Below are positions 1 through 14,602 of a stretch of 14,602 nucleotides of DNA, piece by piece. The notes below the pieces were generated by a model, which had not been told where the DNA came from, did no database searches, and was given only the letters and a program-made list of their open reading frames with translations. A program made the position numbers and the translations under genes. Within the stretch, counting starts at the first letter, position 1. Every line of letters begins with the position of its first letter. Origin of the DNA: a virus. Taxonomy: Duplodnaviria; Heunggongvirae; Uroviricota; Caudoviricetes. The stretch lies in IMG/VR virus record IMGVR_UViG_2908567220_000007; one strand, written 5' to 3'.

Positions 1-303
1 TTACTTCCTGCGTTTATCCTGCTTTGTATGCCCGTGCTGAATGCCCCGCAGTGGATCTTCTTTTTTCAGGTCGATCCCCATGTCCGTTAGTGTTTTTGTG
101 GCGGCGGTTCTTATGGCACAAATCAGGTCTCTTTCCGGTTCCCGGGTTATGGTTGCCTTCCGGATGCATGCCGTTCGTCGTTCCGTTACATACTGACGCG
201 CTTCATCACTTGCCGCCTGTTTCAGTAACTCACCCCAGCGATTAGCCGCCCGTCGCCATAAACCTTTCGCTTCCAGTTCTTCCGCTTTGTCATCATGCAC
301 CAT
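1..303 (-). CDS. PerC-family-like small transcriptional regulator (paralog of 4278..4565)
   Basis: ORF track gives 1..372; the probable start is the internal Met at 301..303 (MVHDDKAEELEAKGLWRRAANRW...), which aligns with the start of the paralog at 4278..4565 (MIRDSKAEELEAKGLYRRAAARW...RRAECIRRA) and has a GGGA motif upstream. Family assignment rests on recalled PerC/Pch motifs, not a search. Stop codon is at window position 1..3. Confidence 0.55.
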   Translation of the reverse strand: MVHDDKAEELEAKGLWRRAANRWGELLKQAASDEARQYVTERRTACIRKATITREPERDLICAIRTAATKTLTDMGIDLKKEDPLRGIQHGHTKQDKRRK

Positions 304-417
304 AAGCATAATCCCATTGATACCTGTTAAATCTGAATGGTTGGTTTCTGTTCTTTTGATAATTTTCCGCATAGCTTATTGTATGACAGTACTGTCCCAC
401 AATAAGGAGTTGCACGC

Positions 418-708
418 ATGAGAATGACCAGGCACAAAAAACAGATCCTTGAACTCTACAAACCTGAGTATCGCGATTGGGTGCGGGTGGAGGCTGGAGA
501 TCCACCTTTTGATGTTCGTGGTGTTACAGTGCTGCTCTATGGTTCCGAATATCAGCGATATCACATAGAGGCAACACGAAGGACGCTAAACGCTATGGTT
601 CGTGATAAGTTGCTGGAGCGTGTGAAAGTCCGTGAGCCACGTTTTGATGTGCGTATTGGTGGCGATGGTGCGCATTGCACGGTAATCCGCTATGGCCTGG
701 TAAGGTAA
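418..708 (+). CDS. hypothetical protein
   Basis: 96-aa ORF with a strong Shine-Dalgarno (AAGGAG, about 8 nt upstream of ATG at 418); plausible codon usage; no recognisable family. Confidence 0.55.
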   Translation: MRMTRHKKQILELYKPEYRDWVRVEAGDPPFDVRGVTVLLYGSEYQRYHIEATRRTLNAMVRDKLLERVKVREPRFDVRIGGDGAHCTVIRYGLVR

Positions 709-810
709 GCCATCGGGTAAATCAGATGATTAAATCACCAGAATGTAAATTTACATTCTGCCAGCCACCAGCTACCCTCCTCAAAATTGAGGAGCCTTTT
801 TATCAACTGG

Positions 811-1101
811 TTACCGCCGTAACCGCTCCGGCTTCTTCCACTGGTAAGTCTTTTTCTCGCTCTCCCGGTACATCTGCACGCGGCGACGGTAGGCCAATAA
901 CTCGAGTACCCTGGTGCGTATGTCGCGCATATCCACTCCGTTAAGCTCAATACCGTCACGGCGCATCACCTCAGCCACCACACGCGCATAGTTCTCAGCG
1001 ATAACGCTGTCCGGCTGCGTGGCCTCCTGTTTGCCTGCTGGTGGTCTGATCCCGGCAATCTGGCGAATCATTTTGAGCATTTCGGCTTCGGTCATTGTCA
1101 T
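811..1101 (-). CDS. hypothetical protein
   Basis: Track ORF is 811..1125; GGAGG lies 2 nt before the ATG at 1101 and 8 nt before the ATG at 1095, so the start is probably 1095 or 1101 (MTMTEAEMLKMIRQIAG...). Convergent with 418..708. No family recognised. Confidence 0.5.
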   Translation of the reverse strand: MTMTEAEMLKMIRQIAGIRPPAGKQEATQPDSVIAENYARVVAEVMRRDGIELNGVDMRDIRTRVLELLAYRRRVQMYRESEKKTYQWKKPERLRR

Positions 1102-1384
1102 GGCCTCCAGAGGATGGGGAAACAATGCCGTAATTGTGGCGACTGATAACGGGAAGGTGAAGCGCGTTTAAGCTGGTGGATGTGGTGCCATGTTTCCCAC
1201 CAATGGTGGAAAAGCCCACCAGCGCAACGCAGGACGCATAAAACCATTGCGATGACTCATGACAGGGGGATAACCACAAAAACAACGTCAGCGGCGCGAT
1301 TCTGGCTGTTCCTGTCCGGGATGTGCATACGTATTACGTACGCAGTTAATCCGGCATAACGCATGACGTTGATGAAACGCCCCG

Positions 1385-1470
1385 ATCATCGCGGGTCCTC
1401 CTGGATGGGTACCCTTACCGCGGGGCGACGGACGCGCGGAAAAAGGCTGGTTTTTGCATTTTCATGGCGG
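1385..1470 (+). other. cos-like site copy A (cosQ-like CGGGTCCTCCTGG, cosN-like GGGCGACGGACG at 1423..1434)
   Basis: Alignable to the lambda cosQ/cosN junction and to the in-window cos at 2425; a 35-bp stretch (ccttaccgcggggcgacggacgcgcggaaaaaggct) is identical to the reverse complement of 4113..4147 (copy B). Confidence 0.5.
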
Positions 1471-1864
1471 CGGCAGCATGTGTGGTAATATATTGATAAT
1501 TAAAAGTTATTTCTGTTTTCACCTGTACAATCTTTTTTCTCCCCTGTCATTAGACCAGTTCGCAATCAATTGAAATATATAAATAAATCTGATTTTCACC
1601 TGCCAGATGGAGTTGCCAGTGTCAAATGTGAGCGGAAGCGGTGATGCTTATCACTGAATCATGCCGCATCACGATACCAGACTCCCGGTACCGCTGCGTG
1701 ATAACCCACAAGGCTGGTGGCGATGCGTTATGGTCCGTGCATTGCCATTCTCCTGGCCTGGTGGCATTATCCGGCATGAACGAGCGGTTATTCTCCGTAC
1801 TCTTAATCGTTGTTCATGGTTATTTTCTTTGTGGTAGCTGACTTCTTGATGTCCTTATCCTCCT

Positions 1865-1890
1865 GCCCCGTAATCACGGGGTATTTTTTT
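1865..1890 (+). terminator. putative rho-independent terminator
   Basis: Hairpin GCCCCGT-aatc-ACGGGGT followed by ATTTTTTT on the plus strand; no convincing upstream gene, so it may end a non-coding or short-peptide transcript. Confidence 0.4.
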
Positions 1891-2424
1891 ATCTGTGATT
1901 TGCTGTTCTTCGCTGTGTTGGTATGGGGAGTTCTGGCAATGGTTCAGGCCGTCGCTTTCCTGGTACGTGATTTTTTACGTTCATTATTGTGCTGGTGGCA
2001 GCGTCACGGTGTGTCACGACATATCACCATCACGTCACGCTGATTGCGAAAGCCAGGATTAACCAGTACCGGAACGGGTAGCCCGGTGTATTGTTACCGT
2101 CCTGCCTGCTGGTGGAGTAATTGATAACGGTTATCATCAACGGGAGGGGCGGATCAAATCCCTGCAGTCCTGGCTGTCCGGGACCGCCCGCCTACCCTTG
2201 TTCACATCGCCGCAGGTTCGAAAACTTTTTTTTTGGGAAGGTGTGCACAGACTTGATAGGTAAAACCTATCAGGTAAAGCCACGTCAAACCCGCGCCATT
2301 GCTGGCATCGTTAAAAAAACTCACTCCACCAGCAGGCTAAAAAACTGTGATTTTTCCAGCTTTTGGGGCTCAAAAAGGGCTCCCTAAAAAAACTCTCACA
2401 CTGTCGGAGGGGGCGGGAAATTTT

Positions 2425-2640
2425 CACGGGTCCTTTCCGGGATCTGAAACACCGCGGGGCGGTAGACGCGCAGGATTTCACTATTTATGAAAATTTTTCA
2501 GGGGAAAAGCGTGTCGGTACTTCTCGCGCATAACTGTTTGTTTTTATTAAAATCAACCACCAGAAACATACGACATCATAAAGCCAAAAAATCCTGTTTT
2601 TTTGGCGTTTCATGTCGGAGGTGGTTTTTGATAATAAATT
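2425..2640 (+). other. lambda-like cos site (cos1): cosQ-like 2427..2440, cosN-like GGGCGGTAGACG 2457..2468, cosB-like region downstream
   Basis: ttcacgggtcctttccgggatctgaaacaccgcg|gggcggtagacg|cgcaggatttcactatttatgaaaattttt closely matches the lambda right-end/left-end junction as I recall it (TTTACGGGTCCTTTCCGGTGATCCGACAGGTTACG|GGGCGGCGACCT|CGCGGGTTTTCGCTATTTATGAAAATTTTCC). Confidence 0.7.
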
Positions 2641-2759
2641 GGTGGATTAATGTTAATAAAAATGTTTTTACTACCTGATGGAAACAACCGGAAACGTGCC
2701 GGAGAAATTACGGCAACAGAAAGGTGAGTGACAGCCGCGCAATTATTGAACAAAACTGA

Positions 2760-2952
2760 GAAAGGATCTGATAACGTCATTTTTGGCCCAAAATGCCTAC
2801 TGTCAGATCCTTTCTTTTTTTGATGATTTTACGATTAAACAATGAGTTACAGAGAAGAAGAACGGATCTGACTTTTCCCGAAAAATTTTCATAAACAGTT
2901 AAGAATTGCGCGTACCCGTACCCCCGGCGCTTAAGGTTCCGGGAAGGACCCG
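2760..2952 (-). other. second lambda-like cos site (cos4), inverted; cosQ-like 2939..2952, divergent cosN-like around 2911..2925, cosB-like region including an inverted repeat at 2760..2821
   Basis: Minus strand reads cgggtccttcccgg...gggggtacgggtacg cgcaattcttaactgtttatgaaaatttttcgggaaaagtcagatccgttcttcttc, matching lambda cosB (TTTATGAAAATTTTCCGG...CCGTTCTTCTTCG). The inverted repeat GAAAGGATCTGA...TCAGATCCTTTC resembles the lambda inverted repeat AAAGGAAACGACAG...CTGTCGTTTCCTTTC. Confidence 0.6.
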
Positions 2953-3067
2953 CCGGAGATAGCTACCATAAGGCGTAATTAAATATCCGTGGATGTGCCA
3001 CGGAACAACCAGCTGAATACAGGTCAGCGTGATGACGGGAAATAAAGAGAATGGTTGCGAATCCTCC

Positions 3068-3092
3068 ACCTGGTGAATCTCCTGCACTACCT
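3068..3092. repeat. 25-bp direct repeat (copy 1) of the 3' end of the Nu1-like gene
   Basis: cctggtgaatctcctgcactacctg is identical at 3068..3092 and 3445..3469; the second copy encodes the C-terminus QVVQEIHQGE of the 3437..3985 ORF. Confidence 0.85.
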
Positions 3093-3436
3093 GTCATTTT
3101 TGCGCAAATACCCCTGGCATTTCTAAGCATGATCAACCTGATCATTGTTCGCGGTTTTTACGTGGCAAGGCCAGTAATTACGGGGCTTACATCAATGTTT
3201 ATTCCGCCCATCTCTGCGCAAAACAACTTAACAAACCTTAACATCACAGGCGGAACCATTGCGCAAATCTGGAGGCTTACCGCACGCACCAGCCTGATAC
3301 ATTGCCAGAATGAACGAGGTGCGACACAATGTGTGTGCATGTCTTACTCATTGAACCTCAATCAAGGCGCATCCTTAGCGGTGCGCTTTTATTTTTTTGT
3401 CGTTCCCTGCTGGTGGATGTTTTCCGGTACCGCGAA

Positions 3437-3985
3437 TTATTCCCCCTGGTGAATCTCCTGCACTACCTGCGGCGTGCTGTCGTGCCAGTCGTTAGCCTGT
3501 ATCACTCTGGTAGTAATTTGCCTGCACAGGTCATCAATAATCTGCCTGACGCGGTTTACTGCGTTCTGATTGATGCCTGCATCGTGCGCCAGAATGTCGG
3601 GGAGTTTTGCCAGTTCCTCGCTTAAGATTTTCCCAAAAATAACCAACTCCCTGCGCACATCCACGGCGGGGATAAGTTCAGCCGTTTCCTGCTCGAACTT
3701 AAGGCGCTCACGCTCAGACTGGTACCAGGCTTTACGGCTTTGTGGATCCATGTCTTCGAGTGATGCGGGGGCGGGTATATTCATGAATGCGCTGATTATA
3801 TCCGTCAGTCGGTACAGCTTTAATTTTTCATGCCCTCCGGCTGGCTGAATGTCCTTTAGCCTTTTCGCTACTGTCTGGCGGCAAACTCCCGCCAGTTCTG
3901 CGAGTTGATTGATATTAAGTTTCAGGTTTTTAAGCTCCCGATCCATTCGTCCTCCGGTAGTTTTAAATGCGTATCGTGCGCTCAT
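3437..3985 (-). CDS. Nu1-like terminase small subunit / packaging-redirection protein (N-terminal HTH)
   Basis: 182-aa ORF; N-terminal NINQLAELAGVCRQTVAKRL...KLYRLTDIISAF resembles the lambda Nu1 HTH (NKKQLADIFGASIRTIQNW...VLYDSAAVIKWY). Sits about 150-190 bp downstream of cos copy B, as Nu1 does after lambda cos. An internal Met at 3944..3946 with GGAGGA upstream is an alternative start. Confidence 0.55.
   Translation of the reverse strand: MSARYAFKTTGGRMDRELKNLKLNINQLAELAGVCRQTVAKRLKDIQPAGGHEKLKLYRLTDIISAFMNIPAPASLEDMDPQSRKAWYQSERERLKFEQETAELIPAVDVRRELVIFGKILSEELAKLPDILAHDAGINQNAVNRVRQIIDDLCRQITTRVIQANDWHDSTPQVVQEIHQGE
3445..3469. repeat. 25-bp direct repeat (copy 2), overlapping the 3' end of the Nu1-like gene
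   Basis: Exact match to 3068..3092, 377 bp apart. Confidence 0.85.
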
Positions 3986-4100
3986 CTTTCAGTGGGTTAA
4001 AAGTGTTCTGTATGTTGAACAAAAAACACCCCAAATTAACATAGTAAAAATATATTTCATTTTAATTCAACATGTTGGAAAGATGATGATGACGGATGAA
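3986..4100 (-). promoter_or_regulatory. AT-rich cosB-like / promoter region upstream of the Nu1-like gene, with inverted TGTTGAA/TTCAACA sites
   Basis: atgttgaac at 4005..4013 and ttcaacatgttg at 4059..4070 form inverted copies about 50 bp apart in an AT-rich stretch, similar in layout to R elements flanking an IHF site in lambda cosB. Confidence 0.4.
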
Positions 4101-4185
4101 AATGTAAAAATTAGCCTTTTTCCGCGCGTCCGTCGCCCCGCGGTAAGGCCACCCCTCCGGAAGGACCCGTAAAAAAAGCCGGAGT
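4100..4185 (-). other. cos-like site copy B (cosQ-like 4157..4170, cosN-like 4127..4138 on the minus strand)
   Basis: Minus strand reads tttacgggtccttccggaggggtggccttaccgcg|gggcgacggacg|cgcggaaaaaggct, matching the lambda cosQ/cosN junction and near-identical to copy A at 1391..1448. Confidence 0.55.
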
Positions 4186-4194
4186 GTTCCGGCT
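4171..4194 (-). terminator. putative rho-independent terminator after the PerC-like gene
   Basis: Minus-strand hairpin AGCCGGA-acac-TCCGGCT followed by TTTTTTT (plus-strand A-run 4171..4177). Confidence 0.5.
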
Positions 4195-4277
4195 TCGTCT
4201 GTGTATGTGCGCATATGCAGGATTTTATGTTATCCGCCCACGGGAGTGATGGTCATTTTTCAGGATAATATCCGGCA

Positions 4278-4565
4278 TCACTGGTTACCGCCAGGCTGCT
4301 TCGGGTAGTTCCGCCAGACGGATTTACCCGCGTCTTCCATCCCCATCACCGCATGAGTGCGGTTTACAGCCTCTTTCAGTGCCCCGAAGTTATCCGCCAT
4401 AACGGGTGGGCGTGCTGCCCTGCGGATGCATTCCGCGCGACGCTTTGCCACCTGTTCGCGCTCCTTATCGGTGTTCACCAGCTGCATGACCTCAGCCCAC
4501 CGCGCCGCCGCTCTCCGGTACAGGCCTTTAGCCTCCAGTTCTTCCGCTTTGCTGTCACGAATCAT
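4278..4565 (-). CDS. PerC-family-like small transcriptional regulator
   Basis: 95-aa ORF MIRDSKAEELEAKGLYRRAAARWAEVM...RRAECIRRA, paralogous to 1..303; start overlaps the stop of the upstream ORF by 4 nt. Confidence 0.55.
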   Translation of the reverse strand: MIRDSKAEELEAKGLYRRAAARWAEVMQLVNTDKEREQVAKRRAECIRRAARPPVMADNFGALKEAVNRTHAVMGMEDAGKSVWRNYPKQPGGNQ

Positions 4566-5098
4566 GCGCCTGTCTTCTCCTTTGTCGCCTGACGTTTGCG
4601 CTTTTCATTCAGTGCTGCCAGCCGCGTTTCTGCCTCCTGCTGTTCCTGTGGTGTCACTTCCCCACATGGCTGGCCTTTCAGGTCGTAACGTGTGCCACCA
4701 GCCATTAAGGCGCGGTAATAGCGCGGAGACTGCGCATAAGATGCCAGCGTCGCACGTAATGCCCCCGGCCCGAATGTCAGCCCCCTGGCGGCGATATCCT
4801 GTATCAGGTCGTCGAATATCCCCACCTTAAGCGGCTTCGGTGCTTTATGGCTGAATAAGTCAGGCCACATCTCAGTGAGGCGGTTAACGCGTCGGCGGTT
4901 TTTGCGCTGCCTTTTGGTCATATGCTGACACGGTGTCGCCCCTGCGGTCTTCTGTTTGCGGCTCTGCTGTGCGTTCTGATTATCGGGTATCACTTTATGC
5001 GCCGATGTGGTTTTATCCTGCTCTTGTGCCGCCTGCGTCGTTTTCTGCGGCGTGCCGTAAATGCCTTTCGGTTTTCGGTTAATGGTCAGCTTTGTCAT
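4562..5098 (-). CDS. ProQ/FinO-domain protein (putative RNA chaperone)
   Basis: 178 aa; PLKVGIFDDLIQDIAARG...LRATLASYAQSPRYYRAL...GTRYDLKGQPCGEVTPQEQQEAE resembles the ProQ N-terminal FinO domain (PLKIGIFQDL...LRSALRLYTSSWRYL...[23 protein letters not shown], recalled). Basic, low-complexity N-terminus. SD AGGGGA upstream. Confidence 0.7.
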   Translation of the reverse strand: MTKLTINRKPKGIYGTPQKTTQAAQEQDKTTSAHKVIPDNQNAQQSRKQKTAGATPCQHMTKRQRKNRRRVNRLTEMWPDLFSHKAPKPLKVGIFDDLIQDIAARGLTFGPGALRATLASYAQSPRYYRALMAGGTRYDLKGQPCGEVTPQEQQEAETRLAALNEKRKRQATKEKTGA

Positions 5099-5134
5099 GC
5101 CTTCCCCTGTAATTACGCTGTTCGCTGTTGTGAA

Positions 5135-5560
5135 TTAAAACGGTATGTTATCCCCGTACGGGTCATCGTGCTGGCTTGTCTGTTGTTTTGCCCTGTTCAG
5201 TGCGTCAGTGGCCTGGCCCTGTTGACCTTTTTTGCCGCCCGGTCGCGCCGTTCGCGCACTGATTACGCTGTCTGCAATAACCTGCCAGCCCTGCCGCGTT
5301 TCCCCGTTCTGGCCTGTCCACTGGCTTACCTGCATGTTACCCGCCACGCTCACCAGTTCGCCTTTCTGGTGCCTGGCCAGTGCGTCGGCCTGTCTGCCAA
5401 ACGCCAGGACGGATAACCACATCGTCGCCGTTCCGTCATCTGCCTGGCTGCACGGCAGGGGAACCGCCATACTCGCCATCGCCATTTGTGTCCCTTTGCT
5501 GGTGGTCTTTAACTGCGGGTCAGCCACCAGCCGCCCGTAAGCCGCTATCTGTGCTGTCAT
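5135..5560 (-). CDS. ssb: single-stranded DNA-binding protein (SSB-like)
   Basis: 141 aa; OB-fold-like N-terminal region (AAYGRLVADPQLKTT...GTATMWLSVLAFGRQADALARHQKGELVSVAGNMQVSQWTGQNGETRQGWQVIADSV), Gly/Gln-rich linker and a C-terminal DDPYGDNIPF resembling the canonical SSB DDDIPF tip. ATGA overlap with the upstream ORF. Confidence 0.7.
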   Translation of the reverse strand: MTAQIAAYGRLVADPQLKTTSKGTQMAMASMAVPLPCSQADDGTATMWLSVLAFGRQADALARHQKGELVSVAGNMQVSQWTGQNGETRQGWQVIADSVISARTARPGGKKGQQGQATDALNRAKQQTSQHDDPYGDNIPF

Positions 5561-6330
5561 GCTGTATGTTCTCCGTTTTTTACTGGCCCTGTCATCAGTG
5601 CGCGCTTAAGCTGCTTGTGTGAGATATTAAACAGGCAGTTCATTCTTCCCGTTCGCTTCATCCGATAACCCGATGCGACCATTGCGGCGATTAATGCGCC
5701 GTTTGTGATGTATGTCGGCTCTGTTGGTTGCCCGTCGCCCTTAGCTCTTCTCTGATTCACACGCTCAACACAATGTTTCAGGCCGTAGGATGTCGGATTT
5801 TTTCCAGGGAATGATGCAATCTTACAGTCGGTTAGGTTGTTCTCCCTTATCCAGCGTAAACAGCTCATCGCCTCCGCCATGAAGGGCGCATAATCAAGCG
5901 GGTGCTGCCATGCCTTATCACGGCTGTACAGTTCAAGTCCGTCGCGGTTAAAAAACGGGTAAGCGGCAAGAATTACCGTTACTGCGTGTTTAATTTCCAC
6001 CTCATCATTCTGTCGCTCTTTTTCTGTTCCGTACGGATAATAATCAGAACCGCCCGGATTGATGCACTGTTTACCACTGAAAGGCCATTGCTTCGCCATT
6101 TCGGGGGTTGAGTGATTACCGTCGCTCCGTTCTCGTTGTGCCTCTGTCCACTGGCTGGCGTATTCCGTAAAACTCACCGCCTTACTCTGTCGCATCCAGT
6201 GCGCAATCATGACCAGCGTTCTGGTAAGGCTCTGTATATCTCCGTGCTTCTCACACTGTCCCGCAAAGGCCTTGAGCGCTTCGCGTTCTTTGTAGTTCAT
6301 ACCCTGACGGGTCATATTTTCTTTATTCAT
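5557..6330 (-). CDS. hypothetical protein, replication-module associated
   Basis: 257-aa ORF immediately downstream of the iteron array and translationally coupled to the SSB-like gene; no family recognised by eye. Confidence 0.55.
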   Translation of the reverse strand: MNKENMTRQGMNYKEREALKAFAGQCEKHGDIQSLTRTLVMIAHWMRQSKAVSFTEYASQWTEAQRERSDGNHSTPEMAKQWPFSGKQCINPGGSDYYPYGTEKERQNDEVEIKHAVTVILAAYPFFNRDGLELYSRDKAWQHPLDYAPFMAEAMSCLRWIRENNLTDCKIASFPGKNPTSYGLKHCVERVNQRRAKGDGQPTEPTYITNGALIAAMVASGYRMKRTGRMNCLFNISHKQLKRALMTGPVKNGEHTA

Positions 6331-6511
6331 TCCCCACTACTCCCCGCTTTTGTTCCCCACTTTTTAAATTTCCCACTTGCTTCCCACCTCGTTTTTTGGG
6401 TGAGTCTAATACTTTGTTTTTCATTGTATTTTTTACTCCCCACTTTTTTGGATGTATACAGGCCGGAAAGTGGGGAATAGCGTTTCAATTTTGTTAAATT
6501 CCCCGCTATCC
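6331..6511. repeat. iteron-like repeat array (putative replication origin), left part
   Basis: Eight copies of TCCCCACT-like heptamers (CCCCACT, CCCCGCT, TCCCACT, TCCCACC) at about 6332, 6342, 6355, 6371, 6382, 6438, 6501 plus an inverted copy GTGGGGA at 6470, around an AT-rich spacer (6391..6435). Confidence 0.5.
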
Positions 6512-6596
6512 GTAACCGTCTCATTTAAACCGTCTTTCGCCTCCCTTTCCTGTTTCCGATACTAATGTCCATTTTCGCAGTAAAGGGACATTTAAG

Positions 6597-7247
6597 ATGA
6601 ATGCACGAAAAGCGGTACTGGCAGACAATCCGGAATTGATCCTGCGTGTGCTACAGCTGAGATTTGACGAGTCACTGTCGTACCCGCGCATTTCTGCGCA
6701 GACCGGTGTCAGCAAAACCGCCATTTTTTCTCTGGTGAGGCGATTTCACCAGGTATTCACTGACTGGCCTCTTTCCGGTGAATATTCCTGCGGGCAACTG
6801 GCCCGGGCTCTTTTCCCGGGGCGATACCCTTCAGCCCCGACCGTGACTCAGCCTGTGAAAGCAGAGAAACCCCGCCGGAACCGATTTTCACCGGAGTTTA
6901 AATGGAGACTGGTTCAGCAAACTCTTTTACCCGGTGCCTGTGTCGCACAAATAGCTCGAGAGAATGGAATTAACGATAACCTGCTCTTTAACTGGCGGCA
7001 TCTCTGGCGTAACGGTGGCCTGCAACCGCCCGGCGAACATGAAACATCGCTACTTCCCGTGACGTTAACTCCGGAGCCGGATAATAAAATCCCGGCACCA
7101 GTGCAGATACCTGAACAGATAAATACACTGCCAGACAGTCTGTGCTGCGAGCTGGTTCTGCCGGCCGGAACTCTCAGGCTGAAAGGTGAACTGACACCGG
7201 CGTTATTACAGACACTTATCCGCGAAATGAAAGGGAGCAGCCACTGA
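6597..7247 (+). CDS. tnpA: IS66-family accessory protein (orf1)
   Basis: 216-aa ORF, first in the IS; AAGGGA Shine-Dalgarno; ATGA overlap with the next ORF, as is typical for IS66 elements. Confidence 0.75.
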   Translation: MNARKAVLADNPELILRVLQLRFDESLSYPRISAQTGVSKTAIFSLVRRFHQVFTDWPLSGEYSCGQLARALFPGRYPSAPTVTQPVKAEKPRRNRFSPEFKWRLVQQTLLPGACVAQIARENGINDNLLFNWRHLWRNGGLQPPGEHETSLLPVTLTPEPDNKIPAPVQIPEQINTLPDSLCCELVLPAGTLRLKGELTPALLQTLIREMKGSSH

Positions 7248-7594
7248 TGATATCTCTCCCTGCCGGTTCGCGTATCTGGCTGGTTGCCGGTATCACCGAT
7301 ATGCGAAATGGCTTTAACGGCCTGGCCTCAAAAGTTCAGAACGTCCTGAAGGATGACCCGTTCTCCGGGCATCTGTTCATCTTCCGCGGACGCCGGGGTG
7401 ACCAGATAAAAGTGCTGTGGGCTGACAGTGACGGACTGTGCCTCTTCACCAAACGCCTGGAGCGGGGCCGCTTCGTCTGGCCGGTCACCCGCGATGGAAA
7501 GGTTCACCTTACTCCGGCTCAGTTGTCCATGCTTCTCGAAGGCATCGACTGGAAGCACCCGAAACGAACGGAACGCGCTGGCATCCGCATATAA
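7247..7594 (+). CDS. tnpB: IS66-family protein TnpB (orf2)
   Basis: 115-aa ORF MISLPAGSRIWLVAGITDMRNGFNGLASKVQ...LFIFRGRRGDQIKVLWAD, characteristic of IS66 orf2. Confidence 0.85.
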   Translation: MISLPAGSRIWLVAGITDMRNGFNGLASKVQNVLKDDPFSGHLFIFRGRRGDQIKVLWADSDGLCLFTKRLERGRFVWPVTRDGKVHLTPAQLSMLLEGIDWKHPKRTERAGIRI

Positions 7595-7613
7595 CCCGTT
7601 GTAAAGTGAGGAT

Positions 7614-9185
7614 ATGGACACCTCACTTGCTCATGAGAATGCCCGCCTGCGGGCACTGTTGCAGACGCAACAGGACACCATCCGCCAGATGGCGAAATAC
7701 AACCGCCTGCTCTCACAGCGGGTGGCGGCTTATGCTTCCGAAATCAACCGGCTGAAGGCGCTGGTTGCGAAACTGCAGCGCATGCAGTTCGGTAAAAGCT
7801 CAGAAAAACTTCGCGCTAAAACCGAACGGCAGATACAGGAAGCCCAGGAGCGAATCAGCGCACTTCAGGAAGAAATGGCGGAAACGCTGGATGAGCAATA
7901 TGACCCGGTACTGCCATCCGCCCTGCGCCAGTCTTCAGCCCGTAAGCCGTTACCGGCCTCACTTCCCCGTGAAACCCGGGTCATCCGGCCGGAAGAGGAA
8001 TGCTGCCCGGCCTGTGGTGGTGACCTCAGTCCTCTGGGGTGTGATGTGTCAGAGCAACTGGAGCTTATCAGCAGCGCTTTTAAGGTTATCGAAACACAAC
8101 GTCCGAAACTGGCCTGTTGCCGGTGCGACCATATCGTGCAGGCACCAGTACCTTCAAAACCCATTGCACGCAGTTATGCCGGAGCGGGGCTTCTGGCTCA
8201 TATCGTCACCGGGAAGTATGCAGACCATCTGCCGTTATACCGCCAGTCAGAAATATACCTTCGTCAGGGCGTGGAACTGAGCCGCGCCACGCTGGGGCGC
8301 TGGACCGGTGCCGTTGCTGAACTGCTGGAGCCGCTGTATGACGTGCTGCGCCAGTATGTGCTGATGCCCGGTAAAGTCCATGCGGATGATATCCCCGTTC
8401 CGGTCCAGGAGCCGGGCAGTGGTAAAACAAGAACTGCCCGGCTGTGGGTCTATGTCCGTGATGACCGTAACGCCGGTTCACAGATGCCCCCGGCGGTCTG
8501 GTTCGCGTACAGCCCGGACCGGAAAGGTATCCATCCACAGAATCACCTGGCCGGTTACAGCGGTGTGCTTCAGGCAGATGCTTACGGTGGTTACCGGGCG
8601 TTATACGAATCCGGCAGAATAACGGAAGCCGCGTGTATGGCCCATGCCCGGAGAAAAATCCACGATGTGCATGCAAGAGTGCCAACCGACATCACCACGG
8701 AAGCCCTGCAGCGTATCGGTGAACTGTATGTCATCGAGGCAGAAGTCCGGGGATGTTCAGCAGAACAGCGTCTGGCAGCAAGAAAAGCCAGAGCGGCTCC
8801 ACTGATGCAGTCACTGTATGACTGGATACAGGAACAGATGAAAACACTGTCGCGTCACTCGGATACGGCAAAAGCGTTCGCATACCTGCTGAAACAGTGG
8901 GAGGCCCTGAACGTGTACTGCAGTAATGGCTGGGTGGAAATCGACAACAACATCGCAGAGAACGCCTTACGGGGAGTGGCCGTAGGCCGGAAAAACTGGC
9001 TCTTCGCGGGTTCCGACAGCGGTGGCGAACATGCGGCGGTGTTGTACTCGCTGATCGGCACATGCCGTCTGAACAATGTGGAACCAGAAAAATGGCTGCG
9101 TTACGTCATTGAGCATATCCAGGATTGGCCGGCAAACCGGGTACGCGATCTGTTGCCCTGGAAAGTTGATCTGACCTCTCAGTAA
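7614..9185 (+). CDS. tnpC: IS66-family transposase (orf3)
   Basis: 523-aa ORF with N-terminal coiled-coil/leucine-zipper-like region, CCPACGG...CCRC zinc-finger-like motif and a long catalytic core, as in IS66 transposases; GAGG Shine-Dalgarno. Confidence 0.9.
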
Positions 9186-9215
9186 ATATCAATACGGTTC
9201 TGGCGAGCCGCTTAC

Positions 9216-9243
9216 CGCTATCCCCACTTTTATCCCCCACTTT
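9216..9243. repeat. iteron-like repeat array, right part (separated from the left part by the IS66 insertion)
   Basis: cgctatccccacttttatcccccactttt carries two further CCCCACT copies immediately after the right target duplication and just 3' of the helicase stop at 9244. Confidence 0.5.
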
Positions 9244-10650
9244 TTACAGTGGATGCACGTCATTGCCGTCGATAGTGATCACGCCGTCTTTTTCCAGCTT
9301 GTACAGCCAGCGCCGGAAGTGCTTCATCTCATACCCCAGCTTTTTCATATCGTCACGTAGCAGGGCGATAGTGCACGGCTCTTTGTGTGCTGTCCGTGTT
9401 CTTATGCACTGCCATAATGCGGCGTGATTCTCCGTCTTGTTCCCGGCCTCCTCGATGCGTTCCAGTTCAGCAGGGGCGCGGGGAACGTCAATCACCACCA
9501 TGGACACAATCTCTTCGCCATCTGTATCGGTGAACACCTCCACGCTTTTAAGGTCGTATGCGCTCTCTTTTGGCTCCTCTGCGTCCTTCATCTTCGTACA
9601 TGCCGCCACCAGTGCTGTAACGTCTGAATTTTCCCGGCCGATTCGGTACTCTGCATCAAGCGCGGCACGGAATGCGCTGGAACCACGCGCCCCCTTTGTT
9701 TCATCCTTGCCGGAATGGTGAACCACCAGCACCGTGGCCCCTGTAGCCTGCTTTATCGCGTCACACCCCTGGATAAATGCGCCCATATCACGGGAATCAT
9801 TTTCATCATTCCCACCAAAGCAACGGGCCAGCGTGTCGATCACAATCAGCCGCACATTTTCGCCCGTTCTGCTCTTAACAAGTCCGGCAGTCCTGATAAC
9901 CTGCTCCACATAGTCAGGCGATGCGGGAAAGACAGGCGCGTTAACGATGCACAAATCTGTAACCTCTTTTCCGTATGTTATCTCCCACGCCTTAACGCGG
10001 CGTTTTACGCCCATACTGCCTTCGCCAGCGATATAGATAACCGCGCCCTTACTTACCCTGCGGCCTCCCCATGCCATACCTGTGGCAACATGGCACGACC
10101 AGGAAATAGCCAGGAACGATTTATAAGAACCGCTGGCCCCGTAGGTGCTGCATAATGACTCAGCCGGAATAAGCCCCTTAATTACGTAGCTTTGCTGCGC
10201 GTCGAATCCCTCAGAACCCCATGAGATGGGAAGTGTGATTTTTCGCTTTCCACCATTCATGACCAGACTTTCCCCGCGTTCCCAGGTTTCTTTAAGCCGC
10301 GGTAGTTGCTCGCTCCAGTCCTCCAGCAGTTCGAAATTCTCTGAAAGTAACCGTGCTTCCTGGACACCTGCGATCGCCAGTTTGGTGGCAATGGTCAGCA
10401 TCTGCATATCGTCCAGGTTTCCGGCGCGTATGACCTTTGCTCTGTATCGTCCTTCATCAACAATCTGTAAATTGTCCAGTTCGCTTAACTGATAACGGCC
10501 CAGGTAAACCGGAGGGATGGGATCGCCTGCTTTTTTGGCCTGTGCAATCATGTAATGTTCTGCAAAGGAGTGAGCATTATCACCCGCAAAAATAACCGCC
10601 TCAGTGTGTTTATCTTTCGGTAACAGTTTTACGTTCGGTGCCAGTTTCAT
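9244..10650 (-). CDS. RepA-like P-loop replicative helicase (RecA-fold ATPase)
   Basis: 468 aa; P-loop-like GASGSYKS, Walker B-like RLIVIDTL, and VLVVHHSGK motif reminiscent of RSF1010 RepA-type helicases; C-terminal winged-helix-like tail; AGAGGT Shine-Dalgarno; followed directly by the iteron array. Confidence 0.75.
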   Translation of the reverse strand: MKLAPNVKLLPKDKHTEAVIFAGDNAHSFAEHYMIAQAKKAGDPIPPVYLGRYQLSELDNLQIVDEGRYRAKVIRAGNLDDMQMLTIATKLAIAGVQEARLLSENFELLEDWSEQLPRLKETWERGESLVMNGGKRKITLPISWGSEGFDAQQSYVIKGLIPAESLCSTYGASGSYKSFLAISWSCHVATGMAWGGRRVSKGAVIYIAGEGSMGVKRRVKAWEITYGKEVTDLCIVNAPVFPASPDYVEQVIRTAGLVKSRTGENVRLIVIDTLARCFGGNDENDSRDMGAFIQGCDAIKQATGATVLVVHHSGKDETKGARGSSAFRAALDAEYRIGRENSDVTALVAACTKMKDAEEPKESAYDLKSVEVFTDTDGEEIVSMVVIDVPRAPAELERIEEAGNKTENHAALWQCIRTRTAHKEPCTIALLRDDMKKLGYEMKHFRRWLYKLEKDGVITIDGNDVHPL

Positions 10651-10946
10651 TTTTTACCTCTGGATGCGCTGAGCATGCTTTTTATTTTCTTAATATTTTC
10701 CCGTGCTTTTTCCCTGCTGGTGGGCTTACTGCGTGTTGCGTTCTGTACCAGAGAAAAATCACGCCGGAACTGATAAACAGGCATCACGCAGTCATAGCCG
10801 TACCCATCACGGCGGTAAGTAACGCACCGTCCCGCCACGCTTTTAATCGTTACCGTGCCGCCGTAGTTATCCCGGAAAATATCGCCGGGGTGGATTTCAG
10901 GCCGAGCGGGGCCGCTGGCAGTAAAGCCAGAATTTTTCTGTTTCAT
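10647..10946 (-). CDS. hypothetical protein
   Basis: 99-aa ORF whose stop overlaps the helicase start by 4 nt (translational coupling); no family recognised. Confidence 0.5.
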   Translation of the reverse strand: MKQKNSGFTASGPARPEIHPGDIFRDNYGGTVTIKSVAGRCVTYRRDGYGYDCVMPVYQFRRDFSLVQNATRSKPTSREKARENIKKIKSMLSASRGKK

Positions 10947-10951
10947 GGTTT

Positions 10952-11185
10952 TTATTTCCCGGTGTGTTGTTCTTTATATCTGTCGTGCAAAAGATCTATT
11001 TCTTGTAGTTCCATTATTACCGGCTCAAGAAGCGTTATTAACGCCGTCGCAATATTGCTGTTGCGTTTATCTCTTTCATTATCGCCAAGCGTTCCAAGCC
11101 ATAAGCGCAATATTTCAAGCATGTTTTCACTGTAAGCAAGAGCACGGTATGCACGGTCTACTGTGTCATTGTAAATATCACACAT
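10952..11185 (-). CDS. hypothetical protein
   Basis: 77-aa ORF with GAGGA Shine-Dalgarno 8 nt upstream; 8-nt overlap with the upstream ORF. Confidence 0.5.
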   Translation of the reverse strand: MCDIYNDTVDRAYRALAYSENMLEILRLWLGTLGDNERDKRNSNIATALITLLEPVIMELQEIDLLHDRYKEQHTGK

Positions 11186-11411
11186 GGCTTACATCCTCAG
11201 GGAATTTTCTTCTGTAACGCGCCTCTGCCACATATTCAGCATAGTCCGACGCAATAACGAGAATATCGCTGCCTGTTCCTGAATGCTCAGTGGTTCCAAT
11301 TAAAAAACATGCGGCCTTTATCAGGTCATTAACAACCAGCAACGCATCACCCGCATCATCCGATACGCCATCAAATTCCTGTTTCAGGGCATTAAAACGA
11401 TCATCACGCAT
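11178..11411 (-). CDS. hypothetical protein (possibly the C-terminal part of a frameshifted gene)
   Basis: 77-aa ORF whose ATG lies 2 nt after a 9-nt poly-G tract (plus-strand poly-C 11414..11422); one extra G would fuse it in frame to the 11384..11644 ORF. Confidence 0.45.
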   Translation of the reverse strand: MRDDRFNALKQEFDGVSDDAGDALLVVNDLIKAACFLIGTTEHSGTGSDILVIASDYAEYVAEARYRRKFPEDVSHV

Positions 11412-11644
11412 AACCCCCCCCCATTTTCACAATCAGCAATCAGGATAGCCCTGGCCTCATTCAGTGCCATATCAGCGGTAAGCTGTGCGTAGGCCAGCGA
11501 ATGCGGGATTATTGCCCCTGTATATTCCGGCTCTCTGGTAATGTGTTTTTCCGCGGTTGCTGCCGTGCATGAAATATCAATCAGCGCATCAATCAGTGTT
11601 TTGATTGCTTCGGCGACTGCGTCCGGACGGGTGTTATTGCACAT
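11384..11644 (-). CDS. hypothetical protein (possibly the N-terminal part of a frameshifted gene)
   Basis: 86-aa ORF with GGGGG Shine-Dalgarno; reads through the poly-G tract as GGG and stops 9 codons later. Confidence 0.45.
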   Translation of the reverse strand: MCNNTRPDAVAEAIKTLIDALIDISCTAATAEKHITREPEYTGAIIPHSLAYAQLTADMALNEARAILIADCENGGGLCVMIVLMP

Positions 11645-11840
11645 GATGCACCCCCTGACGAATACGGGCGGCGAATACCATCACGCAGCCAGCCGGGGAT
11701 TGCTGGCGTGCTTCCTGTTCGCTGGTGGCCTCAATGGTAATCACGCGCGGTTGTGCCGTGCTCAGGGCGATAAAACGCCAGATGTATTTATTCAGGTTGT
11801 GCGAGTCCCGCCCTTGCGGGTGTCTGGTATAATTTCTCAT
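11634..11840 (-). CDS. hypothetical small protein, first gene of the leftward operon
   Basis: 68-aa ORF from the ATG at 11838..11840 with GAGGTA Shine-Dalgarno; it is the 3' portion of the 328-aa track ORF, the rest of which looks like antisense read-through. Confidence 0.4.
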   Translation of the reverse strand: MRNYTRHPQGRDSHNLNKYIWRFIALSTAQPRVITIEATSEQEARQQSPAGCVMVFAARIRQGVHHVQ

Positions 11841-11879
11841 AGCTACCTCGATACTCTTTCTATCGTTGGTGGTTAGACG

Positions 11880-12036
11880 CCCTGCATGTGTGCCACCACT
11901 GCGGGGCGTTGCTGTATATACACCACAATTATTGGTGTGCATACAGATTAAATTTAAGTGTGCTACAGTGTCAAGTGTTTTATTAACACACCTTTTGGTG
12001 TAATGTGTACACACCTCAAAATAACCGGACATCCTA
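11880..12036. promoter_or_regulatory. divergent promoter/operator region with clustered ACACC/GGTGT inverted repeats
   Basis: TATATACACCA-7-TGGTGTGCATA at 11915..11943; ACACC-TTTT-GGTGT at 11988..12001; GGTGT-9-ACACC with palindrome GTGTACAC at 12005..12012; three AGTGT direct repeats at 11958..11978. Confidence 0.45.
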
Positions 12037-12342
12037 ATGGCAACAGGAAACATCAACAGCAGATCGCAAATGAAAAATATCCGCTTCCCCCATGATGTAA
12101 TCGAGGAAATGGAAAATTCGAAAACGGAAGGGGAAACAATAGCCGCTTTCGTGATTACAGCTGTTCGCGGGGAGATCGCCCGCCGCCAAGCTGAAGGAAG
12201 CGGAGAAAATCCCCTGGTTTCTTCGCTCGATGCACTGGCGCAGGTGGAAAAAATTGGAGTCAAAGCTGCCGAGGAGATCGGGCAACTAGTCGCCGTCGCG
12301 CGTGAAGAACTCCAGCGCCGCAAGGCCAAAGAGCAGGAATAG
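12037..12342 (+). CDS. putative small DNA-binding regulator (possible ribbon-helix-helix; coiled-coil C-terminus)
   Basis: 101-aa ORF divergent from the leftward operon; KNIRFPHDVIEEMEN looks like a strand-helix ribbon-helix-helix start; weak Shine-Dalgarno, and an alternative start at the Met at 12070. Confidence 0.45.
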   Translation: MATGNINSRSQMKNIRFPHDVIEEMENSKTEGETIAAFVITAVRGEIARRQAEGSGENPLVSSLDALAQVEKIGVKAAEEIGQLVAVAREELQRRKAKEQE

Positions 12343-12445
12343 CCCACCAGCAAGCCAGCACACTGATCACATTGCCAACCGGATGTAATCACGGCATAGT
12401 AATCAGCGCTCATGCGTTGGGGATAACGCGCAATTAGTGTTGAAG

Positions 12446-12474
12446 GGCCACCGTAGCGGGTGGCCTTTGTTTTG
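12446..12474 (+). terminator. putative rho-independent terminator
   Basis: GGCCACC-gtagcg-GGTGGCC hairpin followed by TTTGTTTTG, about 100 nt after the 12342 stop. Confidence 0.5.
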
Positions 12475-12624
12475 CCTGTTATCCGGCAATTGTGGCGCTT
12501 CGCCACACGGTTGATATAATTCCCCTGCACTGATCCATTTTTTTCGCAGCAGGTTAATTGTTCGCAAGGGCGCTCCGGCAACGGGGCGCTTTTTGTTATG
12601 TTCATCGCGTTACGCCTCACACCA

Positions 12625-12831
12625 TTACGCAGCCGTTCCGCGCGCTTCTTCCTCGCGCTCTTTCAGCCAGGCCAGCACTTCATCTTCATACCAGCCAACA
12701 CGGCGCAGACCGATTTTGAAGCCTTTCGGGAATTTTCCGGCGTTGATCATGTCCTGTAGCGAACTGTCTGCCTTGATGCGCAGAATATTTTTTACTTCCT
12801 GACGGGTAAGTATTTTTCTGATTGTTTCCAC
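12625..12831 (-). CDS. alpA: AlpA-family phage transcriptional regulator (Vis/excisionase-like HTH)
   Basis: 68 aa; LTRQEVKNILRIKADSSLQDMINAGKFPKGFKIGLRRVGWYEDEVLAWL matches the AlpA pattern (KFP...G.R.VGW...E...W). Confidence 0.85.
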   Translation of the reverse strand: METIRKILTRQEVKNILRIKADSSLQDMINAGKFPKGFKIGLRRVGWYEDEVLAWLKEREEEARGTAA

Positions 12832-12899
12832 TATGTTTTACCTCGTTAATCCGGCGTATTCCGGTGATAAATACGGTAAAACAGGGCAGGGCGGGAAAA

Positions 12900-12935
12900 A
12901 CAGTACCCACCGTTTTAAAACGGTACCCACTGTTT
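12900..12935. promoter_or_regulatory. perfect 16-bp palindrome ACCGTTTTAAAACGGT flanked by direct repeats GTACCCAC, upstream of alpA
   Basis: Palindrome at 12909..12924; GTACCCAC at 12903..12910 and 12923..12930, 20 bp apart. Confidence 0.4.
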
Positions 12936-12963
12936 TTTATCTCATTGATTACGCTTTTCTTTC

Positions 12964-12997
12964 TGCAAAAAAATAGCGACCGCAAGGGGCCGCTATT
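12964..12997 (-). terminator. putative rho-independent terminator after the int-proximal small ORF
   Basis: Minus-strand hairpin AATAGCGGCC-ccttgc-GGTCGCTATT followed by a T-run (plus-strand A-run 12967..12973). Confidence 0.5.
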
Positions 12998-13001
12998 GTG
13001 A

Positions 13002-13244
13002 TTACCGTTTCCACTTCTTAGGTCGCCCACCGCATTTAAGGCTGGTGGGCCTCAGCACCTTGTCGATGCTTTCAGCCAGATTTTTCGATGCGCCACGCGA
13101 GCGTAAAAAACTGACTACCTCGTGTTTTGTGGGGGCTGTTGATTTGTCTTCCGGATCGTATGTTGACCAGAATTCACGATTTGCCATTAACGCCAGTTGC
13201 AGCCCTTCGCCGCAAGCAGGGGATACCTTTTCATTGAAAAACAC
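13002..13244 (-). CDS. hypothetical protein
   Basis: 80-aa ORF starting at GTG with AAGGAG 8 nt upstream; between int and alpA; followed by a terminator. An internal ATG (MANREFW...) is an alternative start. Confidence 0.5.
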   Translation of the reverse strand: MFFNEKVSPACGEGLQLALMANREFWSTYDPEDKSTAPTKHEVVSFLRSRGASKNLAESIDKVLRPTSLKCGGRPKKWKR

Positions 13245-13360
13245 CTGGATAGCTCCTTGAATTTCATGATTTGGGTGACTCCTCTCTGTATTGGGTGGGT
13301 TGTGGCGATTATACGATGGTTTAGCATGGTTTGCATTGCTTTTACTGGTTTTTTGTACAG

Positions 13361-14602
13361 TTACACGGCACGGATACCCCTTTTACCACTGGCTATGGTC
13401 ACTCCGGTAGCTGCGGCCTCTACAAATTCCCCCCACCAGCGCATAAGCACCACGCGCTTTTCCAGGTAGTTACTTCGGTTATATGCTCGCCTTACCTCGT
13501 TTGTGTCCACGTGTGCGAGTGCGGCCTCGATTACGTCCGGCTCGAATCCTTCCTCGTTCGCTGCTGTACTGAATATGGCGCGTAATCCGTGAGACACCAG
13601 CACACCAGCGTAACCCATCCGGCGCAATGCGGCGTTAGCTGTCTGGCTGCTCATTGGCAGCATTGGATTTTTAAGGCTGGGAAAAACGTGTTCCCTGTGT
13701 GCGCTGATTGGCTTCATGGTTTCCAGTACAGCCATAGCCTGACCGCAAAGGGGGATCACGTGGTCACGGCGCATCTTCATGCGTCCGGCTGGAATCGTCC
13801 AGGTTTCGGCATCGAGATCTATTTCTTCCCAGCGTGCGGCGGCTGCTTCGGCTGGGCGTGCTACGGTCAGCAGTTGCCACTCAATCAGCAATCTGGTTTG
13901 CCGTTCTATGCTGGCGACCGATAAATCGTGCATTAGCTGCGGTAGCTGTTCCGGTCGGATGGTTGGCATGTGCTTTTTGGTGGGTGAGGGGAATGCCTTG
14001 CGGACGTTCGCGGCGGTGTTGATGTCAATCAGCCCACTGTTGGCAGCAAAATCCATCACTTCATTGATGCGTTGTAAAACGCGTTTCAGGGTTTCCAGGT
14101 TGCCGCGTGCTTTAATGGGTGTGAGTATCTCAACAAAGCGGCGAGCTGTGAGGGTATCTATTGGCGTGTTTCCGATGTACGGGAATACGTATTTTTCCAG
14201 GGATCGCCAGATATCCTTAATCGTGTTGTAAGCCAGATTCTGGCCTTTTTTCATCTCGTACCAGTCCGAGGCAACTTTTTCGAACGTGTTGCCCTTTTTC
14301 CGACTCTCTGCTTCACGTTTCCGGCGTTCGTGGTCCTGTGGGTCAACTCCCTTCGCTATGAGTGACCTGTATTCATTCCGTCGTTCTCTGGCATCGGACA
14401 GGGAAACATCATTCAGCGATCCGAGGCTGATGATAGTCCGTTTTTTATCTGCCGGGCGGTAGTACGTAAAACGCCAGATTTTTGATCCGGAGGGTTTCAC
14501 CAGAAGAAATAATCCTCCACCATCCTGCAGGGTGTATTCCTTTTCCCCTGGTCGTGCGTTTTTGATCTCCGTAATAGTTAGTGGGGTGGTTTTTCGTGCC
14601 AT
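13361..14602 (-). CDS. int: P4-type tyrosine integrase (site-specific recombinase, phage integrase family)
   Basis: 413 aa; N-terminal arm-binding-like region (MARKTTPLTITEIKNARPGEKEYTLQDGGGLFLLVKPSGSKIWRFTYY); C-terminal catalytic region with HGLR box and RRAYNRSNY tyrosine region. Start codon is the last three bases of the window. Confidence 0.95.
   Translation of the reverse strand: MARKTTPLTITEIKNARPGEKEYTLQDGGGLFLLVKPSGSKIWRFTYYRPADKKRTIISLGSLNDVSLSDARERRNEYRSLIAKGVDPQDHERRKREAESRKKGNTFEKVASDWYEMKKGQNLAYNTIKDIWRSLEKYVFPYIGNTPIDTLTARRFVEILTPIKARGNLETLKRVLQRINEVMDFAANSGLIDINTAANVRKAFPSPTKKHMPTIRPEQLPQLMHDLSVASIERQTRLLIEWQLLTVARPAEAAAARWEEIDLDAETWTIPAGRMKMRRDHVIPLCGQAMAVLETMKPISAHREHVFPSLKNPMLPMSSQTANAALRRMGYAGVLVSHGLRAIFSTAANEEGFEPDVIEAALAHVDTNEVRRAYNRSNYLEKRVVLMRWWGEFVEAAATGVTIASGKRGIRAV

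Follow-up and report, generated by a model that had tools for sequence, protein, structure and literature searches.

What do a gene for a single-stranded-DNA-binding protein (SSB) and a gene for a FinO-domain RNA-binding protein do side by side in a phage satellite, and do they belong together? The question is raised by positions 4562-5560 of a 14,602-nt stretch of DNA, the IMG/VR virus record IMGVR_UViG_2908567220_000007, assigned to the Caudoviricetes (hereafter the window, whose numbering is used throughout). Phage satellites of Escherichia coli move virulence and defence genes, and only the outlines of the modules for their replication and regulation are known. A first-pass annotation of this locus had proposed an SSB with an IPF-type acidic tip and a ProQ/FinO-domain protein that were co-transcribed in a satellite replication module, and had compared the two with the leading regions of conjugative plasmids. 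This interpretation is partly supported. Both open reading frames (ORFs) lie exactly at the positions first proposed, on the minus strand, both products belong to the proposed families, and the element is indeed a satellite. SSB and FinO are, however, two separable, optional modules and not a unit. The explanation that we favour, and that we hold to be fairly probable, is that of a phage-inducible chromosomal island (PICI) with two independent optional modules between the origin and the end of the AlpA-side operon, an SSB with a role in replication and a FinO-domain protein with RNA as its ligand.

By its gene content, the window is a PICI of the E. coli type. As in other Gram-negative PICIs, int and alpA are accompanied by a replicase with an adjoining iteron origin and by a small-terminase-like gene, phage structural and lysis genes are absent, and the size is around 10-15 kb; the left end of the island falls outside the window. 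The order on the minus strand is int, alpA, an Icd-like frame with small ORFs, DUF4222, a RepA-type helicase and the iteron origin, followed by a gene for a 257-aa protein, SSB, FinO, PerC, a terminator and a DUF1441 gene. The relatives are islands of 12-14 kb at tRNA-Pro beside yejM. Two uninterrupted ones, in E. coli strains C5 and STEC313, show the same gene order, and the NCBI pipeline labels the genes in question there as 'single-stranded DNA-binding protein', 'ProQ/FINO family protein' and 'PerC family transcriptional regulator'. The known E. coli PICIs (of the EcCICFT073 type and the capsid-forming EcCIEDL933 type) share with the window int, alpA, a replicase, an origin in which an AT-rich spacer is flanked by two iteron sets, PerC and a small-terminase-like gene after the origin, and, as judged from the relatives of the window, integration at a tRNA gene. 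The prototype-like capsid-forming PICI of O157:H7 also has the same type of SSB after the origin. The window differs from them by the extra FinO gene between SSB and PerC, by the 257-aa orphan before SSB and by an origin interrupted by an IS66 element.

Identity and conservation of the two proteins

Profile searches placed the upstream protein in the SSB family (Pfam PF00436, E=8e-16, 58.4 bits against a cut-off of 26; NCBIfam TIGR00621, 62.9 bits against a cut-off of 53.95), and it matches 26 solved SSB structures. The gene is under strong purifying selection (dN/dS = 0.09-0.27). Residues W48, F54 and W81, which we take to map onto the W54, F60 and W88 that stack on single-stranded DNA (ssDNA) in E. 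coli SSB, are retained, i.e. three of the four stacking aromatics of that protein. About 95 of 101 full-length relatives have a tip of the D-x-IPF type, which is the partner-binding motif of E. coli SSB. At every PICI-type locus examined the SSB gene follows closely downstream of the origin, at some loci with a short variable ORF in between, and it does so with three unrelated replicases (RepA helicase, DUF927 and D5_N/DUF5906). SSB, Primase and DUF5906 have independently been classed as PICI replication genes next to the origin (PMC10111431). Based on the position after the origin, the purifying selection, the retained aromatics and the conserved tip, the sequence data point to a working SSB that uses the host SSB-interaction network, and it likely supports the replication of the satellite after induction.

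Like the chromosomal and F-type plasmid SSBs of E. coli, the island protein combines an OB fold, conserved aromatics and a D-x-IPF tip. In spite of this likeness, its relationship to E. coli SSB (1eqq; phmmer E=5.8e-5) is a distant one; it has 141 aa against the 178 residues of the 1eqq chain, with a linker of about 25 aa, and in our reading of the sequence the loop that carries W40 in E. coli SSB is shorter. It is less than 30% identical to any SSB of the GenBank phages. Among 72,556 plasmid records, 51 matched it, of which two were conjugative; several of the top-scoring records were of chromosome size, and close relatives on conjugative plasmids were not borne out by this search. By these comparisons the protein is assigned to an island-specific lineage and not to the conjugative-plasmid type.

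The downstream protein scored well above the cut-off for the ProQ/FinO family (PF04352, E=7e-25, 87.5 bits against a cut-off of 27, residues 68-171). A phmmer search of the PDB returned the N-terminal domain of ProQ (8e-14) and FinO (1.7e-11), and also NMB1681, Lpp1663 and RocC. In an AlphaFold model built from 22 family members, residues 62-176 were predicted with confidence and residues 1-54 with low confidence, these latter being probably disordered. All Foldseek matches of this model at E<=0.001 were FinO-family structures (NMB1681, FinO 1dvo, RocC and Lpp1663), with target TM-scores up to 0.83. Purifying selection was found over the whole gene (dN/dS = 0.26-0.45) and in the FinO domain (0.25-0.38).

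ProQ needs its residues R58, Y70 and R80 to bind every one of the seven RNAs examined (PMC10168233). The aligned residues of the island protein are R115, Y127 and R137, which are conserved in 20, 22 and 22 of the 22 family members, respectively; K91, G93 and R126 are likewise conserved among the relatives. The fold and the conserved pocket for the RNA 3' end are thus shared with FinO of the F plasmid, FopA of pCol1B9 and the N-terminal domain of ProQ. The architecture is FinO-like, a basic N-terminal extension followed by the FinO domain, and the Tudor-like C-terminal domain of ProQ is lacking; FopA (PMC7491321) and FinO have such a basic disordered extension, unlike ProQ. Since the pocket residues of ProQ are conserved and the N-terminus resembles those of FinO and FopA, the protein likely binds the terminator hairpins of RNAs. 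It is, nevertheless, about 30% identical to most full-length plasmid FinO-family matches and scored below the NCBI subfamily cut-offs for both FinO (NF010317, 70.5 against 136 bits) and ProQ (NF003434, 60.2 against 127 bits).

Both proteins are new members of known families, which automatic annotation has already recorded in thousands of genomes, and the finding is at present mostly one of correct annotation. The core papers on E. coli PICIs mention PerC and do not mention SSB or ProQ/FinO. A ProQ/FinO-like gene was named in passing as an accessory gene of an Enterobacter cloacae PICI (PMC13612085), and an evolutionary review of FinO/ProQ proteins mentions phage- and island-borne homologues in general terms only (PMC9977716). 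The initial statement that such genes are not typical of described satellites was therefore too strong, as an SSB is among the replication genes of PMC10111431 and in the O157:H7 capsid-forming PICI, and a ProQ/FinO gene is in the Enterobacter PICI.

Separate distributions of SSB and FinO

Gene counts were made in 5,426 complete E. coli genomes. The SSB gene is present in 1,806 of them at 2,349 places, 2,347 chromosomal and two on plasmids, and the FinO gene in 1,092 at 1,561 places, none on a plasmid. The whole interval 4562-5560, taken as one place that covers at least 80% of it, was found in 171 genomes. The flanks of the genes were compared in samples drawn from IMG/VR and other loci, which include related islands, so that the counts are indicative only: for 50 distinct FinO proteins with usable flanks, SSB was immediately upstream in 21 and PerC immediately downstream in 40, and eight had SSB upstream and no PerC. 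In a sample centred on SSB (the 80 closest of 475 relatives, 76 of them with usable flanks), the gene after SSB was FinO at 24 loci, PerC at nine and another gene at 43. The SSB gene is therefore a frequent yet optional part of the satellite replication module, and the FinO gene is an add-on of its own, more closely tied to PerC than to SSB and carried by about a fifth of the complete E. coli genomes.

Among FinO-carrying islands, the presence of SSB follows the class of replicase: 13 of 15 islands with DUF927 and five of seven with RepA have it, as do two of 25 with D5_N/DUF5906. In the SSB-centred sample, SSB was seen with all three classes. Individual islands illustrate the different combinations. 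The O157:H7 capsid-forming island (L005) has the helicase, an 83-aa ORF, SSB and PerC, without FinO; another capsid-forming island has a D5-type primase, an 81-aa ORF and SSB, followed by the capsid genes; and in E. ruysiae and many IMG/VR islands a D5_N/DUF5906 primase-helicase and the origin are followed by FinO and PerC, without SSB. Both families are abundant across Escherichia, Salmonella and Citrobacter. A profile search of genome contigs with the FinO alignment found only two loci, the derived patterns being narrow.

The idea that SSB and FinO form a functional pair like that of plasmid leading regions is not supported, the two genes being usually apart. Because the SSB appears as a lineage of its own, and the FinO-domain protein shows about 30% identity to its plasmid counterparts and falls below the FinO and ProQ thresholds, the comparison with plasmids is, as far as these alignments tell, one of analogy and not of relationship. 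The island FinO gene resides in phage satellites or CP4-57-like islands and was never plasmid-borne in the complete E. coli genomes.

FinO relatives in the CP4-57-like islands share 63-74% amino acid identity (L006 7955-8463, L007 7958-8302 and L016 2799-3278). They lie beside YagK/YfjJ, AlpA and UCP030791 genes, with neither SSB nor PerC, and one of the copies is frameshifted and located near a resistance-gene cluster. In the most widespread FinO lineage, P0043 (4,005 collection blocks; L008-L015, ~7560-12500), PerC is degraded. The downstream genes of L008-L015 encode three large proteins of about 840, 690 and 920 aa that gave no Pfam hits and may be defence cargo.

Operon anatomy, proposed roles and alternatives

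The junctions between the 257-aa gene and SSB and between FinO and PerC are ATGA overlaps. As SSB and FinO are separated by 36 nt that contain a ribosome-binding site, translational coupling, first proposed for the two genes as well, is limited to the outer junctions. The stretch from 6330 to 4200 was predicted to be free of minus-strand terminators, and a canonical, strong one follows PerC at 4196-4170, so that co-transcription of the 257-aa gene, SSB, FinO and PerC, as one unit downstream of the replicase-origin module, is plausible from the sequence. The same terminator element follows PerC in the E. coli C5 island (L001), in L002 and L008, and also in L005, which lacks FinO; for this last reason it was rejected as a FinO-specific ligand. 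Terminators of this type, GCCGGAG-N3-TCCGGC, end the PerC unit in the window, L001, L002 and L008, and in L005 the motif with its T-run occurs three times along the operon: after PerC (7628-7605), after the next small genes (7264-7241) and after the capsid block (4991-4968).

In the origin, CCCCACTTT iterons form two clusters with an AT-rich spacer between them, a layout identical to that published for E. coli PICIs (PMC6092414). An IS66-family element has inserted inside iteron cluster 2, with an 8-bp target duplication, CGCTATCC, whose left copy is at 6504-6511. It divides two helicase-proximal iterons and the helicase gene from the remaining origin and the downstream genes. The two genes are thus downstream of the helicase, the iterons and the 257-aa gene, as first described, but they are not contiguous with the helicase, since 2.7 kb of IS66 lie inside the iteron array. 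The same site in the C5 island has no IS66, and the junction was found in none of the 5,426 complete E. coli genomes, which suggests that the insertion is probably recent. With its origin split and its operon cut by IS66, the island copy in the window is probably impaired for replication and for the induced expression of these genes.

For an intact island, the following roles can be proposed. After induction, the island helicase would open the AT-rich part of the iteron origin, and the exposed single strands would be coated by the island SSB. Its D-x-IPF tip could then recruit host replisome proteins, e.g. DnaG, the chi subunit of Pol III and PriA. The satellite would in this way have its own supply of SSB during the replication of the helper phage. 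The FinO-domain protein would be made together with the translationally coupled PerC at the 3' end of the operon. RNA would be bound in its concave pocket (R115, Y127 and R137), which in ProQ, FinO and RocC grips the 3' end of terminator hairpins, and the protein would most likely stabilise or match up an RNA that bears a terminator and comes from the satellite, its helper phage or the host.

We looked for such a partner RNA in several ways. An Rfam scan of the window at E<=1 gave chance hits only. At the gathering thresholds, a scan of ten related loci gave hits for C4 and isrK at two of them, L004 and L018, and for the int-alpA RNA at L003. When the window was cut into 150-bp tiles and compared with 102 loci that have FinO and 56 that lack it, none of the distal tiles within about 5 kb showed enrichment with FinO. 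In contrast to FinO and FopA, no FinP- or Inc-like partner RNA is thus recognisable for the island protein by Rfam in the window or by the co-occurrence tiles. The coding regions of SSB and FinO also contain hairpins with T-runs on the plus strand (4894-4911 and 5204-5226), which were discarded, as they are weak and are explained by Lys and Gln codons of the coding strand.

The C4 and isrK hits correspond to immunity modules of the P4 type, which combine isrK with the C4 antisense RNA and lie in the early part of some FinO-carrying islands of E. albertii and Salmonella, at 3236-3424 of L004 and 65-758 of L018, where the module is duplicated; these modules are absent from the window.

Several observations speak against the proposed roles. 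Many PICIs lack this type of SSB, including most of the FinO-carrying D5_N/DUF5906 islands, so the protein is dispensable for PICI replication in general and the host SSB may suffice. Neither Rfam in the window nor the tiles yielded a candidate partner RNA, and in the ten-locus scan C4 and isrK were present in only two of the eight FinO-carrying islands, with no FinO-linked pattern. The tight linkage of FinO and PerC fits an accessory role directed at the host equally well as a role in the satellite life cycle. In the literature, our search turned up no functional work on either protein in a satellite.

In a different explanation, rather unlikely in our opinion, FinO and PerC are an accessory regulatory cassette carried as cargo, PerC acting on transcription and FinO on RNA, with transcripts of the host or of other elements (virulence or physiology genes) as targets and no part in the replication, packaging or timing of the satellite. 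The direct, translationally coupled succession of the two genes for 40 of 50 distinct FinO proteins fits such a cassette. So does the fact that PerC homologues of PICIs alter LEE expression (PMC11773190; PMC6092414), as do the placing of the PICI ProQ/FinO gene among host-interaction genes in the only paper that lists it (PMC13612085), the failure of Rfam and the tiles to find an island-linked partner RNA, and the relatives in CP4-57-like islands, which lack both SSB and a PICI replicon. Nevertheless, the characterised FinO-domain proteins of mobile elements covered by the FinO/ProQ review control the transfer or replication of their own element through antisense RNAs, as in FinO-FinP and FopA-Inc (PMC9977716). 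Moreover, the FinO gene is located inside the helper-induced operon and not in a separately expressed cargo region, and PerC is not obligatory, since eight of the 50 FinO proteins have SSB upstream without it.

It is improbable that both genes are decaying passengers without current function, at least in the copy disrupted by IS66. In favour of this reading, the element splits the origin and cuts the genes off from the upstream promoter, and its junction is missing from the 5,426 complete genomes and so is probably recent. Against it, both ORFs are intact, dN/dS is 0.09-0.45 family-wide, the functional residues and the tip are conserved, and the two families are abundant in three genera.

The adjacency of SSB and FinO in islands of E. 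coli, E. albertii, Salmonella and Citrobacter, with a near-constant spacer (36 nt in L001, L002 and L008-L015; 35, 42 and 49 nt in L004, L018-L020 and L017), and the conservation of the SSB tip, which shows that the interaction with host proteins matters, could suggest a co-functional pair, similar to that of plasmid leading regions, that protects or establishes incoming single-stranded satellite DNA or counters defences that sense ssDNA or SSB. The near-constant spacer, however, reflects a shared mosaic block. PICI DNA enters cells double-stranded, because it is packaged by phage-type terminases (here the DUF1441/TerS-like gene), and has no leading-strand entry step to protect. We consider such a pair highly improbable, since the arrangement is a minority one (171 genomes against 1,806 with this type of SSB and 1,092 with this type of FinO), the SSB lineage is essentially absent from conjugative plasmids and there were no hits to defence-related models, PADLOC, which models defence systems and not counter-defence, giving none for any island protein.

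Returning to the favoured explanation of two independent modules, its unexplored part is the satellite-borne FinO-domain lineage, an unstudied gene family. We think it unlikely, though worth stating, that the lineage of satellites and CP4-57-like islands gives satellites a control at the RNA level, by stabilising antisense or terminator RNA of the satellite or the helper in order to time expression or to interfere with the helper. If specific RNA partners exist in the satellite or the helper, this FinO-type protein would add RNA-chaperone control to satellite-helper biology and would be the third widespread FinO-domain protein in the RNA biology of E. coli. A layer of RNA-level control in satellites would also extend FinO-type regulation from plasmids and the core chromosome to a new arena.

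Feature map and minor observations

Features of the window, in the order of the minus strand
Feature	Positions	Strand	Details
Tyrosine integrase, 413 aa	13361-14602	-	Pfam Phage_integrase, Phage_int_M, Arm-DNA-bind_3
AlpA-type regulator, 68 aa	12625-12831	-	Pfam Phage_AlpA, E=4.5e-8
DUF4222 protein	10647-10946	-	Pfam DUF4222, E=1.3e-24; overlaps start of helicase gene
RepA-type (AAA_25) replicative helicase, 468 aa	9244-10650	-	Pfam AAA_25, E=2.4e-43
Helicase-proximal iterons and right copy of target duplication	9216-9244		CCCCACTTTT at 9222 and 9235; CGCTATCC at 9216-9223
IS66-family insertion sequence, 2,704 bp	6512-9215	+	Pfam HTH_Tnp_1, TnpB_IS66, DDE_Tnp_IS66
IS66 TnpA	6597-7247	+	
IS66 TnpB	7247-7594	+	
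IS66 transposase	7614-9185	+	
Rest of origin	6330-6511		cluster 1 (~6330-6380), AT-rich spacer (~6385-6430), part of cluster 2 (6438, 6467 inverted, 6498)
257-aa protein, orphan	5557-6330	-	no assigned function; stop overlaps SSB start (ATGA)
Single-stranded-DNA-binding protein, 141 aa	5135-5560	-	OB fold (~1-105), short linker, acidic tip DDPYGDNIPF
SSB-FinO spacer, 36 nt	5099-5134	-	ribosome-binding site GGGGAAGG; no hairpin
FinO-domain RNA-binding protein (predicted), 178 aa	4562-5098	-	disordered basic N-terminus (predicted), FinO domain 62-176
PerC-family regulator, 95 aa	4278-4565	-	Pfam PerC, E=7.5e-36; start overlaps FinO stop (ATGA)
Intrinsic terminator closing the operon after PerC	4170-4196	-	GAAGCCGGAACACTCCGGC then T7; read from sequence; folded dG -9.7
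DUF1441/small-terminase-like protein, 182 aa	3437-3985	-	Pfam DUF1441, E=4.7e-35; PHROG 141 'terminase small subunit', E=2e-55

The DUF4222 gene occupies the identical position in every related island examined, and the homologue of the helicase is named 'helicase RepA family protein' by PGAP. The DUF1441 gene is the next transcription unit beyond the PerC terminator. Its product had no sequence match in the PDB, and the expected match to the Rpp packaging protein could not be shown.

The window is a mosaic. The part at 1-5580 shares about 99% identity with the island of STEC313, whose replicase is of the DUF927 type, and the part with the replicase, the origin and the 257-aa gene (within 4084-14602) shares 94-95% with that of C5. 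The recombination joint is around the boundary of SSB and the 257-aa gene. At the left edge of the window there is a second, divergent PerC-family gene (1-372, minus strand, 123 aa) with 42% identity to the first one, and the island extends past this edge.

Two plus-strand regions were also observed. Within 12037-12597, between alpA and the Icd-like region, a plus-strand gene converges on the main operon; the equivalent position in the C5 island is occupied by a YlcI/YnfO-family gene, and the Pfam hits of the ORF in the window were all below threshold. After this gene come a promoter-like site (12372-12400) and two strong plus-strand terminators at 12443-12477 (dG -17.7) and 12566-12597 (dG -15.4). 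This region could yield an antisense RNA against the induced operon, and the plus-strand module is found in FinO-positive and FinO-negative islands alike. Just past the 3' end of the DUF1441 gene, a promoter-like site on the plus strand (3302-3330) precedes a strong plus-strand terminator (3364-3399), a configuration that could produce an antisense RNA of about 60 nt or serve as a bidirectional terminator.

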